From positions 2,114-66,113 of the forward strand of contig CALVNT010000008.1 in NCBI GenBank assembly GCA_944349925.1: a DNA stretch of 64,000 nucleotides. Direction: 5' to 3'. This DNA is from an uncultured Clostridia bacterium (GTDB lineage: Bacteria; Bacillota; Clostridia; Christensenellales; UBA1242). The notes beneath the pieces are model-generated. The model saw only the letters and a list, made by a program, of their open reading frames with translations. It searched no databases and was not told the origin of the DNA. Made by a program: the position numbers and the translations under genes. Below, in pieces: positions 1-6,594 of the stretch (position 1 is the stretch's first letter; each line of letters starts with the position of its first letter).

Positions 1-149
1 ATAGAACAAAAATCAAACACCACATAATTGATTGCATTTGCAACTCAGGCAAAATTAATATCTATAAACACGGCCGAACCAACATAATCAACTACGACCA
101 ACTCGAAAAAGAACTAATCGAAACCCTAAAACAAAAAGGTAAATATTAA
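1..149 (+). CDS. 3' end of a small excisionase/HTH-like protein (partial, runs off the window edge)
   Basis: Frame from nt 3 reads RTKIKHHIIDCICNSGKINIYKHGRTNIINYDQLEKELIETLKQKGKY*. The G-x-I-x-x-x-K-x-G-R-x-x-I-I-N-Y-D-x-L pattern resembles Xis/HTH_17 C-termini. Not in the ORF track. Confidence 0.4.
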   Translation, partial: RTKIKHHIIDCICNSGKINIYKHGRTNIINYDQLEKELIETLKQKGKY

Positions 150-1300: not shown

Positions 1301-3061
1301 TTATTCTTTTTTATCACTTTTAACAAAGCATAATTCTATTTCATAGTTATAATCATTTGATAATAACAAAATATGGTTTAAACAATATTTTGCAATGTTA
1401 GAATCAGAATTTAAAATAGAATTTACACCATCTATATTAATTACGACTTTATATATAAATTTAGAAACTTTTTTCATTTTATCTATAAATTCTTCTTCAT
1501 TATTAAAATTCTTATATAATTCATTATCATCATTTCTCTGTATCTGATTTTGCGAACGCTTAAATAAATCTTTAAAAAAATTTGTATTTCCTAATGTTAG
1601 TTCATTTAATTTTTTCATAGAAAGTTCCACTTGCCTATCTAATTCTCTCATTGAACAATTAAATTTATCCTTTACATGATAAATATAGCACTCATCTTTT
1701 GAGAACTTTAAAACATCGCCAAACTCTATATTATCAGGAATACACTTATGTATTAAAAATCCATTTAAAGATTTTGCTAAAGTCGAATTATACTTATCTT
1801 CATTCAAGACATCCCATTTAGGAAGAGAATCATCGTAACCAAAAATACTTAATTTTTTTTCAAGTAATTTATTTAATCTCATAAAGTAGTTATTTTCCAC
1901 AAAGTAATATACACCATACCACATAAAATAATGTTTATTATTACTTAGAACTTCACCACTTAAATTTTCTATCAACGCACCAAAATTATGTTCATCATCA
2001 TTATCAACGCCGATAACTGTTATTTTTTGTAAGAATTTTATTTTATCTTCATACGGCTTATCTTTTACATTTAAAGATTTATATAAATTTCTTAATGCTG
2101 AAAAAATGTCATATGAATCATCAAATTCTTCAAAATTATCTTCATAAAAAATTTTATATTTATCATAATCTAAAAATGTTTCAACATCTTTATTAAAAAA
2201 ATCATAACCTAAGTATGTTTCTTCTTGTTTTTCGATGTTGTTTAAAATATCATCATAAACAGTCGCATTATTTTTATCAATTTCTTCTTTATCTTTATGC
2301 CTATCCAAAATTTTTATATCTATAAAATCATTTTCTAATTTATCTGGTATCAAGTCATTAATAATTTTAAGCGATTTTATTAAAGCACTTAAATTCATTG
2401 AACTTGATAATTGCAAACTATCCTTTGCAATAACTCCTAATTTATTTTTTTTCGAAGATTGTGGAATATTAAGCAATTTACAAATTATTTCTTTATTGTT
2501 AATTTTTCCTTTTAATCCCTTTATTATTGAATCAATATCTTGTACATCAAAATAATTCAACTCTTGTCTAAAAACTTTATTTTCAGAATGTGTCTTTCCA
2601 CTCATATTGTTCGAATTTAATGCCGTAACCTTAAATGCAGAATCTATAGAACTTAGTGCAATTAATCCAAATTTATCAATTATATAAACAGAAATAACTC
2701 TGAAACCTTGCCCAGTTGGAACAGCATATATTCTATTTTTAATAATAAGAAAAAGTATAGAACTTTGAATCAAGCCTTTTTCATTTAATATTTCTTCTTC
2801 CTTTTCCACAAAATCAGTCGTAAATTTGCTTAAAGCTGACTGTATTTTATAACTATAATAATATAAAAATAATGACACATCACCTACAACATTATTACAT
2901 AGTTTTTGGATTTTATATTCTGGGAACTTTTTCATAATAAAATCAATACAAGCACTATTATCATTATTGTCAAAACTATAATTTTCTTTTTTCATTTCAG
3001 ATTTAATCAAATCTATATTTAATAAATTAATATTGTGCATTTTCGCCGTTGTTTGTGCCAT
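1301..3061 (-). CDS. TIGR04141/DUF6119-like sporadically distributed protein
   Basis: RIYAVPTGQG, KFGL, EDKYN, IEFGDVL...YIYHVK (PD-(D/E)xK-like C-terminus); start moved to the ATG at 3061 behind AAGGAG; very AT-rich. Confidence 0.6.
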   Translation of the reverse strand: MAQTTAKMHNINLLNIDLIKSEMKKENYSFDNNDNSACIDFIMKKFPEYKIQKLCNNVVGDVSLFLYYYSYKIQSALSKFTTDFVEKEEEILNEKGLIQSSILFLIIKNRIYAVPTGQGFRVISVYIIDKFGLIALSSIDSAFKVTALNSNNMSGKTHSENKVFRQELNYFDVQDIDSIIKGLKGKINNKEIICKLLNIPQSSKKNKLGVIAKDSLQLSSSMNLSALIKSLKIINDLIPDKLENDFIDIKILDRHKDKEEIDKNNATVYDDILNNIEKQEETYLGYDFFNKDVETFLDYDKYKIFYEDNFEEFDDSYDIFSALRNLYKSLNVKDKPYEDKIKFLQKITVIGVDNDDEHNFGALIENLSGEVLSNNKHYFMWYGVYYFVENNYFMRLNKLLEKKLSIFGYDDSLPKWDVLNEDKYNSTLAKSLNGFLIHKCIPDNIEFGDVLKFSKDECYIYHVKDKFNCSMRELDRQVELSMKKLNELTLGNTNFFKDLFKRSQNQIQRNDDNELYKNFNNEEEFIDKMKKVSKFIYKVVINIDGVNSILNSDSNIAKYCLNHILLLSNDYNYEIELCFVKSDKKE

Positions 3062-3306
3062 ACAATACTTCTCCTTATATATAAATAATAACATAAAAAA
3101 ATATATTTTTTATATATTCGACAAAAATTGCAATTTTATTTTTAGCTACACTTTAAAATATTTATTATCAAGCAATCTCTATTTTTCATTAGCTTTAATT
3201 TTATATTGCAAACACTTCGAAAGACTTTGTTTATTTAGTTTTTATGATAACAATGTACTTTTAAAACAAAAAGATATAATTTAACCTTCTCTTTTTTTAA
3301 TATTTT

Positions 3307-4032
3307 TTAGTTATCATCTATAATAATCACATTAACTTTTTTAGTATGAATAGTACAAGCGTCTAATGCAATCATTTTATCAGTTATAAATGGTTCAAAA
3401 TTTTCATTTAAACCAAATTCATCATATTGTTCTGGATTTTGCTCATGCCAAAATGCACTACAATGCCAATGCCCACAAACGATTATTTTGCCCGGTTCAT
3501 AAATTTCATATCTATACATTTCTACTGGATTGTTCCAACGAGCTTTTATCCATCTTTCTTTTCTTGCATTTCGCCAATCTTCATCATATAAATAGCAGTT
3601 TTCTATAATTGGTATCCAAGCATGAACAAAAATATATTTTTTTGTTTCATAATAATCAACACACATATCAAGAATTTCTTGCAAGCCTGTTTCTCTTGCT
3701 ATTTTTCGCAAATCAAATTCGCTTATTTGCCATTCTGGACACAAATCAATAATGGTATAAGCTGTCCCATTTGATAAGTCATATTGTGTATTTTTATTTC
3801 GTTCAATCATCTCTTGCATTAAATCTTCATGATTACCACGAACTAAAATAAGCTTATCTTTATGAGATAAAATAAAATCTATGATTTGTTTTGGTTGTCT
3901 TCCCCTGTCAAAAAGATCTCCACAAATAATAATTTTGTGATTAGGATTATTTATATCGAATCCCTTTTCTTTTAATGCAGTTTGCCACTCATCAAAATAT
4001 CCATGGATATCAGAACATACAAAATATTTCAT
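3307..4032 (-). CDS. Calcineurin-like metallophosphoesterase
   Basis: SDIHG, GDLFDRG, RGNHE, FVHA and CGHWH motifs. Confidence 0.9.
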   Translation of the reverse strand: MKYFVCSDIHGYFDEWQTALKEKGFDINNPNHKIIICGDLFDRGRQPKQIIDFILSHKDKLILVRGNHEDLMQEMIERNKNTQYDLSNGTAYTIIDLCPEWQISEFDLRKIARETGLQEILDMCVDYYETKKYIFVHAWIPIIENCYLYDEDWRNARKERWIKARWNNPVEMYRYEIYEPGKIIVCGHWHCSAFWHEQNPEQYDEFGLNENFEPFITDKMIALDACTIHTKKVNVIIIDDN

Positions 4033-4135: not shown

Positions 4136-4660
4136 TTAAATTTCTTTTTCAATTTCTGCAACGACTTCTTCTTGATCAAATTTTTTAGATGTGAACTTAC
4201 CTGTTTTCTTAAATCCTAAATCATAAAAAACCTTTAATGCTTTTTCTCTATTTTCAGGCACAGTATCAGTTAAAAATTCAACACCTTTCTCTTTTGCCAT
4301 TTCAATTACTTTCATCATCGCAGGACGCATATAACCTTGCCCATGAAATTCACTTTTTATAACAATTCCCATTGTCGCTCTTTTGGTTTTTGGATCTTTA
4401 TTAAAATTAACATACCCAACAAATTGGTTTGTTTCAATATCTAAAATATAAGCATAAAAGAAATTAGAATTATTTAATTTAGTATTTGCCCATTCTTGCC
4501 ACTTGTCTTGTGGAAAATCAATACAACCAGTATCCTTATGATAACCCTCAAAACTAACATCATATCCTGCATTATATGCCATAGTGTTAGGATCAGACAT
4601 GCATTTTTCCCTGAACCACAATTCATCGACAGTTGGTTTATGCAATTTAATATTTTTCAT
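4136..4660 (-). CDS. GNAT family N-acetyltransferase
   Basis: EFHGQGYM acetyl-CoA motif; ENREKALKVFYDLGF. Confidence 0.85.
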   Translation of the reverse strand: MKNIKLHKPTVDELWFREKCMSDPNTMAYNAGYDVSFEGYHKDTGCIDFPQDKWQEWANTKLNNSNFFYAYILDIETNQFVGYVNFNKDPKTKRATMGIVIKSEFHGQGYMRPAMMKVIEMAKEKGVEFLTDTVPENREKALKVFYDLGFKKTGKFTSKKFDQEEVVAEIEKEI

Positions 4661-4717: not shown

Positions 4718-4796
4718 TGGTGCACCTGAGAAGATTCGAACTTCCGACAAACCCGTCTTAGGAGGACGGTGCTCTATCCTGCTGAGCTACAGGTGC
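4718..4796 (-). tRNA. tRNA-Arg (anticodon CCT), intact, CCA encoded
   Basis: GCACCTG/CAGGTGC acceptor stem, D arm TAGCTCAGCAGGATAGAGC, anticodon arm CCGTC-CTCCTAA-GACGG, T loop TTCGAAT, 3' ACCA. Confidence 0.95.
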
Positions 4797-4896
4797 ATAT
4801 TAAAATTTTTAATAGTTTTACGACTTATTTTCGGTCAGAAATTTTAGTTGTTTTTATGCAATTTATTGAAGATACTCAAATAAATTTTTTAAAATT

Positions 4897-4920
4897 TGTA
4901 TACCAAAATGTATACCAAAA
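4897..4920. repeat. Tandem 12-bp direct repeat (TGTATACCAAAA x2), candidate integrase arm-type sites
   Basis: Seen directly, ~80 bp from the cut point of tRNA fragment 2; function inferred. Confidence 0.5.
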
Positions 4921-5002
4921 TCGTTTTTTCGATTTTTTGAAATCGATACATCCCTTTATTTATAAGACTTATAGCGATTTACAGGGATGGATAGTTCAAC
5001 AC

Positions 5003-5041
5003 CTTAGGAGGCTCTTGTTCTATCCGTTGAACTACGAGAAC
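5003..5041 (-). pseudogene. Orphan 5' half of a second tRNA-Arg(CCT) (att-site remnant)
   Basis: GTTCTCG-TAGTTCAACGGATAGAAC-A-AGAGC-CTCCTAAG, after which tRNA structure stops. Confidence 0.85.
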
Positions 5042-5076
5042 ATATAAATTTTAGGATTTCACACAAGATTTAGGAC

Positions 5077-5100
5077 AAAATTATTGATAAAATTATTGAT
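5077..5100. repeat. Tandem 12-bp direct repeat (AAAATTATTGAT x2), candidate integrase arm-type sites
   Basis: Seen directly, ~70 bp from the cut point of tRNA fragment 1; function inferred. Confidence 0.45.
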
Positions 5101-5171
5101 GCTTTCAAAAATTCAATCAAAAACCTACGAAAACCCAGTAAATAAAGGACTTAAATTCTTTATTACATACT

Positions 5172-5210
5172 CTTAGGAGGGGCTTGTAATATCCACTTTA
5201 CTATGGGAAC
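5172..5210 (-). pseudogene. Orphan 5' half of a third tRNA-Arg(CCT), probably the original host gene
   Basis: GTTCCCA-TAGTAAAGTGGATATTAC-A-AGCCC-CTCCTAAG, then truncated; preceded by a TTGATT-17bp-TAAACT promoter with extended -10 TG. Confidence 0.85.
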
Positions 5211-5372
5211 ATTATTATCTTTTGTTTTTCTTAGTTTAGCATTTTCATACATTAAAATCAAGTGTTTATTATCTTCTTTTGATATTATTGTTAGCGGTTT
5301 ATTTAAATTTTTATGTTTTTTTATTTTGTCCTTTCTTTAGTTGCTTTTTAACTATAACTATAATATAATGTT

Positions 5373-5464
5373 ATTAACCATAAAGAGTGTGCGAGGGACT
5401 GCCCCGTTGACCACACAGCAACCTGATAAAATGTCAAGGTGCTAAAGGCTGATCGATGGTTAAT
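5373..5464 (+). ncRNA. SAM-I-clan riboswitch (SAM-I or SAM-I/IV-like, P4 reduced)
   Basis: P1 ATTAACCAT/ATGGTTAAT; core AAGAG..GAGGGACTGCCCCGTTGACC..CAGCAACC...AAGGTGCTAA; directly upstream of metK. Confidence 0.9.
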
Positions 5465-5475
5465 TTAAAAAATTG

Positions 5476-5503
5476 GCCACCGATTTGGTGGCTTTTTTCT
5501 TTT
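5476..5503 (+). terminator. Riboswitch-controlled intrinsic terminator
   Basis: GCCACC-GATTT-GGTGGC hairpin followed by a T run, just before the metK RBS. Confidence 0.8.
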
Positions 5504-5517
5504 GGAAAGGAGGTAAT

Positions 5518-6594
5518 ATGAGAATTGTAACAAGTGAAAGTGTTAATGTTGGTCACCCAGACAAAACTTGTGATATTATAGCCGACTCTTTTTTAGATGA
5601 AGCTTTAAAACAAGATAAAGATAGTCAAATGGCTGTTGAATGTGCTATTAAAAACGACAAACTTTTTATTTATGGCGAAGCCACAACAAAGGCAAATATT
5701 GATTATGATAAAATTGCTAGAGATGTTTTAAAAGATATTGGTTATAAAAATGATTTTAAAATTATCAAGGAAATTAGTATACAAAGTCCTGAAATAAACA
5801 AAGCAGTTGTTGGAAAAAAATTAAAAGCAAACGACCAGGGGATTGTTTTTGGTTATGCGACAAACGAAACTAAAGAGTTTATGCCTTTGCCACTAGTTGT
5901 TGCGCATAAGCTTATGATGAAATATGAAAAGTTTAGGCGTCTGCGTGATGATTTTTTTGCCGACGCTAAAAGTCAAGTTTCCGTCCTTTATGACGATTTG
6001 CCAAAAGAAATAACAGAGGTGATTATCAGTGTTTCTCATAGCGATAATATTTCTCTTGCAAGACTTAGAAAGACAATAAAAAGTGAAATAGTTTTGCCAA
6101 TTCTTGAAGAATATAAAAATTTGGCAAAAAATGTTAAAATTTTGATAAATTCTGGCGGTAAATTTACAATCTGGGGAAGTTTTGCCGATAGTGGTTGTGT
6201 TGGTAGGAAAATTGTTGTTGATACTTATGGCGGAGAAGGTAAAGTCGGCGGTGGGTGTTTCAGTTCAAAGAATGCGACAAAAATAGATAGGTCAGGTGCT
6301 TATTATGCTAGAAAAGTTGCAAAAAATGTTGTTGCTCATGGCTATGCTGATAAATGTGAAATAGGACTTAGTTATGCCATTGGTGTTGCAGAGCCTATCA
6401 GTGTTTCAGTTGATTGTTTTAAAACAAATAAAATATCTATCGAAAAAATACAAGCGTATATAAAACAAAACTTTGACTTTAATGTCCAAAACATTATAAC
6501 CGAACTAGATCTTTTAAAACCTATTTATAAACAAACCGCTTGCTTTGGCCATTTTGGAAGAGAAGACTTCAGCTGGGAAAAAATTGAAAAGTAA
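5518..6594 (+). CDS. metK: S-adenosylmethionine synthetase (divergent)
   Basis: TSESVNVGHPDK, DQG, GRKIVVDTYGG, DRSGAY, FGHFGR; ATG at 5518 after AGGAGG. Confidence 0.93.
   Translation: MRIVTSESVNVGHPDKTCDIIADSFLDEALKQDKDSQMAVECAIKNDKLFIYGEATTKANIDYDKIARDVLKDIGYKNDFKIIKEISIQSPEINKAVVGKKLKANDQGIVFGYATNETKEFMPLPLVVAHKLMMKYEKFRRLRDDFFADAKSQVSVLYDDLPKEITEVIISVSHSDNISLARLRKTIKSEIVLPILEEYKNLAKNVKILINSGGKFTIWGSFADSGCVGRKIVVDTYGGEGKVGGGCFSSKNATKIDRSGAYYARKVAKNVVAHGYADKCEIGLSYAIGVAEPISVSVDCFKTNKISIEKIQAYIKQNFDFNVQNIITELDLLKPIYKQTACFGHFGREDFSWEKIEK

Follow-up and report, generated by a model that had tools for sequence, protein, structure and literature searches.

Stacked 5' halves of tRNA-Arg(CCT) genes at the probable edge of a tyrosine-integrase island in an uncultured Clostridia bacterium

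The tRNA-Arg(CCT) stack

The subject of this analysis is a short array of tRNA gene fragments in an uncultured Clostridia bacterium whose assembly (GCA_944349925.1, here G000) comprises 910,138 bases in 40 contigs and is 89.7% complete. The window, that is, the whole 64,000-nucleotide stretch that was analysed, corresponds to G000:C8:2114-66113, and all coordinates refer to it unless a contig is named. The original prediction, made from the sequence of the window, was that two different orphan 5' halves of tRNA-Arg(CCT) genes are stacked here upstream of an intact gene, each left by an element that broke the tRNA it entered and brought a complete replacement with it. The coordinates, together with ARAGORN and Rfam, confirm the arrangement. 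Along the minus strand the order is half #1 (5210-5172; 39 nt of a type-1 tRNA-Arg(CCT), acceptor strand GTTCCCA), spacer 1 (5171-5042; 130 bp), half #2 (5041-5003; 39 nt, acceptor strand GTTCTCG), spacer 2 (5002-4797; 206 bp) and the intact tRNA-Arg(CCT) #3 (4796-4718; acceptor strand GCACCTG), which is called by ARAGORN and matches Rfam RF00005 with 58.7 bits.

Both halves do stop right past a shared core, as had been proposed: each ends at G39, directly past the anticodon loop, and is followed by a non-tRNA arm. The core, CTCCTAAG, has 8 bp, made up of the seven-base anticodon loop and G39, and occupies 5179-5172 in half #1 and 5010-5003 in half #2 (minus strand). A nine-base string common to all three tRNA units, CCTCCTAAG, is present in six copies in the whole assembly, three of them within this stretch. 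The 3' strand of tRNA #3 pairs with its own 5' strand and with neither half. This gene is the sole tRNA-Arg(CCT) found in the assembly, where a tRNA-Arg(TCT) is also present, and it would presumably be functional. Neither half gives an Rfam call at E<=10, as is to be expected because truncated tRNAs should escape calling, and no gene lies within either spacer. An independent Logan contig (chicken-gut run X1, record 6, 1159 nt, 19 differences) covers window positions 4768-5700 across both halves, and the stack is therefore not an artefact of assembly or binning. The Logan contigs compared with the window showed no joints pointing to excision.

On the interpretation developed below, half #1 is the left junction (attL) of a first element, element 1, with spacer 1 as its P' arm. 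Half #2 would derive from element 1's own tRNA-Arg(CCT) (tRNA #2) and would be the attL of a second element, element 2, which has spacer 2 as its P' arm and carries tRNA #3. Each of the two spacers has a tandem pair of repeats on the minus strand, ATCAATAATTTT in spacer 1 (5100-5089 and 5088-5077) and TTTTGGTATAC in spacer 2 (4920-4910 and 4908-4898), both of them putative arm-type integrase sites, as in lambda-like systems. A promoter-like site in spacer 1 (5108-5080, minus strand) would have served tRNA #2.

The right-hand end and the integrase

The original prediction also placed the matching 3' halves, in nested order, beyond the window, and this part fared less uniformly. A search of the 40 contigs for the predicted 3' halves located 3' half #1 on the minus strand of contig C27 (35574-35535), where a non-tRNA arm is followed by the core CTCCTAAG, a complete 3' half ending in TGGGAAC-A-CCA and then a gene for a bacterial PH domain (bPH_2) protein. 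When half #1 and the C27 3' half are joined in a script, the product is the intact tRNA-Arg(CCT) of seven of the 11 relatives compared, at 74/74 bases, while the other four differ from it at 2-3 bases; the resident tRNA has therefore been split in its anticodon loop. The two junctions, attL and attR, have just the 8 bp CTCCTAAG in common. On the other hand, 3' half #2 was found nowhere in the assembly, with exact patterns or with the relatives' type-2 3' half (acceptor strand CGGGAAC, giving a G-U pair) at up to 6 mismatches. Nor do the ends follow the nested order foreseen for them: the nest has either collapsed or arrived as a composite, element 2's arm now stands directly against 3' half #1, with the body of element 1 missing.

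The assignment of that arm comes from the repeats. The 11-mer TTTTGGTATAC has only four copies in the assembly, two in spacer 2 and two beside 3' half #1 on C27, all in the same orientation, and the arm beside 3' half #1 consequently belongs to element 2 and not to the one behind spacer 1. One pair lies about 90-105 nt inside attL and the other about 120-135 nt ahead of the core of attR on C27, the arrangement that arm-type sites have where the P' and P arms come from a single attP. The pieces on C8 and C27 would belong to a single element; no overlap was found between the ends of the two contigs.

A tyrosine integrase had been expected beyond the left edge of the window, and it is indeed present at G000:C8:213-1640, 5.2 kb past the intact tRNA, as a frame of 475 codons. 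It matches Pfam PF00589 (4.2e-24) and PF14659 as well as the PHROG 1 integrase, the Pfam matches being to the SAM-like and catalytic domains only. The frame has a single in-frame TGA (C8:804-806), at a position where eight homologues of 474-502 aa have ordinary sense codons, and this looks like a recent nonsense mutation. We also considered whether the TGA might be read as an amino acid and rejected this, given the sense codons of the eight homologues and the absence of internal TGA codons from metK and the other genes.

Elsewhere the bPH_2 gene proved to have neighbours of other kinds. At the 20 bPH_2 loci scanned there was no tRNA-Arg(CCT), and several had a tRNA-Ser(CGA) or a tRNA-Trp. Homologues of the gene (L036-L038, L042, L046-L048) adjoin other tRNA genes, either directly behind tRNA-Ser(CGA) or near tRNA-Trp(CCA), and the bPH_2 gene itself may sit at island-prone tRNA sites.

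Relatives in the genus

A BLAST comparison of a 581-bp stretch of the locus with 154 genomes of the genus gave matches in 133 of them. We inspected the 29 best non-self loci, which were picked by similarity and are thus no fair sample. Half #1 is identical (39/39) to the first 39 nt of an intact type-1 tRNA-Arg(CCT) at 12 relatives' loci among these 29, and half #2 (again 39/39) to the first 39 nt of an intact type-2 tRNA at four loci (L066, L068, L072, L087). The halves are therefore no chance look-alikes. The original prediction held that they are not copies of the intact gene beside them and cannot pair with its 3' half. Moreover, an orphan or decayed 5' half stands upstream of an intact tRNA-Arg(CCT) at 11 of the 29 best loci (L063, L064, L065, L066, L067, L068, L070, L072, L078, L088 and L091), with two orphans at L070 and L078. 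Genome G157 likewise has two orphans ahead of the intact gene, and its upstream flank is syntenic with that of G000.

In other genomes the spacers turn up again with different 5' halves. Spacer 1 precedes an intact type-2 tRNA in G126 (96% identity), G047, G023, G162 and G011, and in G168 it is followed by a second orphan in place of the intact tRNA. Spacer 2 is found at 90% identity in G058 behind a further, different 5' half, and in G041 a 1.7-kb stretch that starts at the core, includes tRNA #3 and reaches into the cargo is 96% identical to G000. At 94-97% identity over 162-200 nt, element 2's P arm is found next to the core and orphan 3' halves of three other types in G058, G074, G009 and G123, which means that a single family of elements has gone into tRNA-Arg(CCT) genes whose stems differ. 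Even the type-1 gene has been supplied in this way: at L088 (G049:C25) it has an orphan 5' half of a different type (GTGGGTG) 170 nt upstream and is therefore an island-borne replacement there.

An uninterrupted version of element 1 is available in G126. On a single contig this genome has half #1 (with one change in the core), spacer 1, an intact type-2-like tRNA, an integrase, cargo, a P arm, the core and, about 6.3 kb away, 3' half #1, so that the contiguous element measures about 6.5 kb. The integrase is intact (470 aa), converges on the type-2-like tRNA and is 29% identical to that of G000; the cargo includes a T5orf172-domain protein, and the tandem repeat pair of spacer 1, as ATCAATA(A/G)TT, occurs on both the P and P' arms. 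The intermediate state that should have preceded the arrival of element 2 can thus be seen in G126, as a parallel event. None of the element-1 genes of G126 was found when they were searched for in G000.

One further junction, L069 (G134:C10:1-1941, core at 243-250), combines a spacer-2-like P' arm and a tRNA-Arg(CCT) with a pre-core sequence that is not tRNA-like. It could be an attP-type junction, from a circle or a tandem copy, or a decayed half.

At its start (window 4954-5000, minus strand) the P' arm of element 2 resembles the T-arm end of the host tRNA-Tyr and its downstream flank (G000:C14:70-125). The likeness consists of an identical 10-mer and an identical 21-mer in the same order, with the 12 nt holding the acceptor strand and CCA absent; the multi-copy matches in the genus to positions 291-331 of the BLAST query are probably tRNA-Tyr flanks. 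Here attP could have kept a remnant of a tRNA 3' end, whether captured or ancestral.

On its chromosomal side the stack is flanked by an S-adenosylmethionine (SAM) riboswitch (5375-5462, plus strand; Rfam RF00162, 60.6 bits) and metK (5509-6594, plus strand). Island-free relatives had been expected to have an intact GTTCCCA-type tRNA next to metK. The intact type does exist in relatives without islands, but a tRNA-Arg adjoined metK at none of the 13 genus-relative loci, and no island-free allele was obtained. MetK homologues were present in 13 of the 24 genus genomes searched (62-71% identical in 12 of them, with one partial match) and were not found in the other 11, several of which are at least 97% complete.

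A wider integrase family

Species-representative genomes were scanned with an alignment of the integrase, which gave 80 loci, mainly in gut metagenome-assembled genomes labelled Clostridia or Christensenellaceae. These fall into 30 close loci, with integrases at least 57% identical, and 50 distant ones at 27-35%. At 18 of the 30 close loci a tRNA-Arg(CCT) lies just past the integrase and convergent with it, the other 12 being mostly on short contigs. Within 610 nt upstream of this gene there is at least one orphan 5' half at 15 of the 18 loci, and two orphans at 5 of the 18; the three exceptions, with no orphan 5' half, are L099, L122 and L127.

Several of these loci retain both ends. At L102, matching 5' and 3' halves lie 10 kb apart, and at L124 a matched inner pair (about 3.9 kb) is enclosed by an outer orphan. 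At L101 the 5' half and the 3' half are of different types, making a hybrid like that of G000 in mirror image. At L101, L103 and L124 one P' arm is also seen with different P arms depending on the genome, and the same P arms stand at different 3' halves. In these elements the arms have been reshuffled.

Scars of the same kind are found at some of the distant loci, with integrases about 30% identical, beside tRNA-Thr(CGT): L128 has two stacked orphans and L131 has one. A distant locus, L173, has an orphan 5' half at tRNA-Arg(CCG). The trick is therefore not confined to tRNA-Arg(CCT). Among the 13 tRNA-Met(CAT) genes beside distant integrases, none has an orphan-half scar.

Cargo of the island

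The cargo genes between the integrase and tRNA #3 read on the minus strand. The first (205-966) encodes a GIY-YIG protein that matches PADLOC PDLC04031, the PD-T4-3 anti-phage family (5.3e-58), and the LEM-3-like GIY-YIG family of Pfam. It is adjoined by the gene for a DUF6119 protein of 597 aa (1301-3094; Pfam PF19614, 5.4e-26) that has no PADLOC or PHROG match, and the two may or may not form a pair. There follow a calcineurin-like metallophosphoesterase (3307-4032; Pfam PF00149, 5.4e-18; PHROG 246, NinI-like phosphatase) and a GNAT acetyltransferase (4136-4660; Pfam PF00583, 9.7e-11), the latter shared with G041 within the 1.7-kb stretch of 96% identity. On the plus strand, window positions 1-149 hold the end of a 132-aa open reading frame (ORF) that travels with the integrase, in a block 94% identical to the corresponding block of G058. 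A small ORF ahead of the integrase was read as excisionase-like, with 0 PHROG family matches. On C27, the 3 kb ahead of 3' half #1 encode a YpsA-like protein, a helix-turn-helix (HTH) regulator, an AAA_33 kinase and a pyrophosphatase fragment.

The element could alternatively be a prophage or phage satellite with strictly tRNA-dependent lysogeny, its structural genes lying in the unassembled gap. Its integration strategy is that of the Fionnbharth-type phages, as presented in the sections of PMC10865867 considered here; the visible part has an HTH repressor-like gene, the NinI-like phosphatase and the putative excisionase-like ORF, and the length of the gap between C8 and C27 is not fixed by the assembly. 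Nevertheless, the 13 ORFs scanned in the visible 10.2 kb gave no capsid, tail, terminase or portal match, and the contiguous members of the family are small (about 6.5 kb in G126, about 3.9 kb for the inner pair of L124 and about 10 kb for L102). The best 80 relatives of the integrase in IMG/VR are only 24-36% identical, and the cargo includes a defence gene. A phage origin of this kind thus seems unlikely to us, although it is the alternative that survives best.

Integration mechanism and history

We consider it highly probable that the stack is the left boundary of a tyrosine-integrase island, and that this island belongs to a family with disrupt-and-replace integration at tRNA-Arg(CCT), in which the replacement is hit in turn. 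The anatomy of the locus, its two junctions and their recurrence in relatives are direct observations. The crossover takes place within the anticodon loop and G39. Since attP and the target have only the 8-bp core in common, integration does not rebuild the tRNA: attL would keep the host promoter and the 5' half, and attR would receive the 3' half. What the element offers instead is a complete tRNA-Arg(CCT) with its own upstream region, 206 bp inside attL in G000 and about 100-340 bp inside it in the members examined, towards which the integrase reads from the other side. Because the loop is identical, this replacement is an attB for the next element, and the carried tRNA is reused as the next target. 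The notion of a tRNA that is broken, replaced and hit again, which was the core of the original prediction, is supported by the 3' half on C27, the integrase, the element in G126 and the 15 of 18 clade loci with orphan 5' halves.

The history of the G000 locus, for which we propose the following order of events, would have begun when a G126-like element 1 entered the resident type-1 tRNA. Element 2 would then have entered tRNA #2 of element 1. Subsequently element 1 would have lost its body and P arm, and 3' half #2 would have gone as well, leaving the P arm of element 2 against 3' half #1; this probably came about by recombination of the two right-hand cores in place, although a composite that was excised elsewhere and then integrated in G000 as one unit would give the same outcome. 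Finally, the integrase would have acquired its nonsense codon. The mirror-image hybrid of L101 suggests that such core-to-core events are recurrent. The G000 locus, as it stands, is a collapsed two-layer stack with a dead integrase.

The junctions also offer a hint about what the integrase may recognize. At 16 of the 32 flagged attL-like junctions (two of which are really the intact tRNA #3) the P' arm has TATCC or a close variant 11-15 nt past the loop, mirroring the GGATA of the D-loop 11-15 nt before it. Complementarity at the mirrored positions is 0.56-0.88 in the junctions as against 0-0.37 in intact tRNAs. This pattern suggests that core-type recognition involves the conserved D-loop region and the anticodon loop and not the variable stems, and recognition of that kind would explain the tolerance of different tRNA-Arg(CCT) types.

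Several points weigh against the reading of serial disruption and replacement. As 3' half #2 was not recovered, the nesting in G000 has to be deduced from the relatives. The element is split between C8, with its left end, and C27, with its right end, the gap between the contigs interrupting it, and no searched genome carries element 2 from attL to attR on one contig. The flanks of the G126 element show no synteny with G000, so that G126 is a parallel case and not an ancestor. In addition, ARAGORN accepts the hybrid of half #2 and 3' half #1 as a tRNA, and the halves are accordingly not strictly incompatible, nor need excision be lethal.

The fragments might alternatively have been left by classical islands of the rarer mirror type, which supply the 5' part of a tRNA and displace the old 5' fragment; the spacers would then be remnants of deleted islands, and the intact tRNA would keep its original 3' half. 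Islands with a displaced 5' tDNA fragment do exist (159 of 3919 in Islander, according to the part of PMC4383910 used here), and the fragments of G000 likewise precede the intact gene. However, the spacers are gene-free and only 130 and 206 bp long, the 3' strand of tRNA #3 pairs with its own 5' strand and neither half, 3' half #1 lies beyond the island beside an arm of the element, and in G126 and L102 the integrase and cargo are downstream of the intact tRNA instead of between fragment and tRNA. We therefore regard this explanation as very improbable. Least credible of all is a local tandem duplication of the tRNA-Arg gene whose upstream copies were truncated and diverged into pseudogenes with no mobile element involved: there are indeed three same-orientation tRNA-like units within 500 bp, but both fragments end at exactly one base, each is identical over 39/39 bases to a different intact type in relatives, the spacers occur with other 5' halves in other genomes, and a matching 3' half lies at the far side of an integrase-bearing region.

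A relay gene?

A wider picture may be drawn, albeit tentatively and with rather less than even confidence. tRNA-Arg(CCT) could be a relay gene in the genus and in its relatives among the Christensenellales-type Clostridia of the gut; it would be destroyed and re-supplied again and again by competing islands, with a working copy that is usually island-borne and a sequence type uncoupled from the lineage of the host. We are led to this by three observations: type 1 is resident at most loci yet island-borne in G049, 3' halves of four different types are found next to one and the same P arm, and 16 of the 32 attL-like junctions mirror the GGATA of the D-loop. Recombination from core to core within stacks would make hybrid ends such as those of G000 and L101 and would lock islands in. 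The relatives at tRNA-Thr(CGT) and tRNA-Arg(CCG) suggest a preference for dispensable C34 isoacceptors.

The locus has implications beyond a single genome. Integration that depends on a carried tRNA is the hallmark of a whole family of small islands with cargo and defence genes in uncultured gut Clostridia and, where it has acted serially, the invasions can be read one after another from the stacked orphan 5' halves. For annotation, orphan halves are open to being mistaken for pseudogenes, and island finders that look for a tRNA together with a fragment of the same tRNA would miss such islands or misplace their bounds. The family is also a source of integrases that work with an 8-bp core and tolerate several tRNA-Arg(CCT) variants.

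Comparison with known systems

Crossover sites in tRNA genes have reportedly been ordered by Williams (2002) in a scheme of sublocations. The classical islands that restore their tRNA are in some respects close to the elements described here.

With the Islander site A type (in the sections of PMC4383910 used) they share the tyrosine integrase, a crossover in the anticodon loop, an integrase that adjoins an intact tRNA and, at the opposite end, a 3' fragment that has been displaced. In the classical case, though, attP holds the 3' part of the tRNA, the gene is rebuilt and there is no 5' orphan, whereas here nothing is rebuilt, only 8 bp are shared and both 5' and 3' orphans are left behind. The 5'-fragment islands that the same sections describe also differ from G000, in that the island lies between fragment and gene and the gene is rebuilt.

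Tandem islands at one tRNA are known from the tycheposons of Prochlorococcus (10.1101/2020.12.28.424599) and from Islander (125 of 3919; PMC4383910), as far as the portions of these two accounts drawn on here go. As in our stack, the order in which the elements arrived can be read from a series of partial tRNAs that successive integrations have left. What continues to be targeted in those arrays is the host tRNA once it has been rebuilt, and the partial copies are marks of attachment-site repeats; in the present case, by contrast, the newcomer cuts the previous element's own tRNA, and the series is therefore made up of different 5' halves. A 5' fragment upstream of an intact tRNA of another type, with a recombinase-bearing insert, has been described for the tRNA-Thr of Caldiarchaeum subterraneum (Sugahara et al. 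2012, PMC3293823, in the excerpted text), but that case is archaeal and intron-related, and its 1.8-kb insert lies between the fragment and the gene.

The pairs of repeats on the P and P' arms (TTTTGGTATAC in element 2, ATCAATA(A/G)TT in G126) recall lambda-like systems with heterobivalent integrases, on the supposition that these putative arm-type sites are indeed such. The closest parallel, however, is the tRNA-dependent lysogeny of actinobacteriophages (Fionnbharth and subcluster K4, cluster L and others) reported by Guerrero-Bustamante and Hatfull (2024, PMC10865867). In the sections of that paper considered here, a tyrosine integrase acts at a common core that spans about 10 bp without reconstructing the tRNA, and lysogeny depends on a phage-encoded tRNA of the same isotype; the principle was demonstrated by experiment. 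The likeness to our elements extends to an attB within a tRNA gene, a short core (about 10 bp there, 8 bp here), a complete carried tRNA of the same isotype and paired repeats flanking the attP core. The differences are that those are temperate phages of Actinobacteria, whereas here we have small islands of gut Clostridia with no visible virion genes, and that their target is an essential single-copy tRNA (tRNA-Lys-TTT in M. smegmatis), whereas here it is a C34 isoacceptor in a genome where tRNA-Arg(TCT) is also present. An example with a Firmicute host, the Lj965 prophage of Lactobacillus johnsonii, is reported in the same sections: its tRNA is likewise unreconstructed and the cognate tRNA is carried, but it is a prophage and a single case, with no stacking in that account.

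Those sections of PMC10865867 raise the question of how widespread tRNA-dependent integration is beyond the actinobacteriophages, and they contain no mention of a carried tRNA as the next attB, of stacked orphan halves, of hybrid ends or of non-phage islands. In the literature that we searched, chiefly outside subscription journals, neither non-phage islands that carry a replacement tRNA nor stacked 5' halves were found described. The principle of integration is thus already published for phages, to the extent that these sections of PMC10865867 present it. The present locus and its relatives extend this principle to islands that are not phages, in gut Christensenellales-type Clostridia, and add hybrid ends and the serial re-targeting of the carried tRNA.

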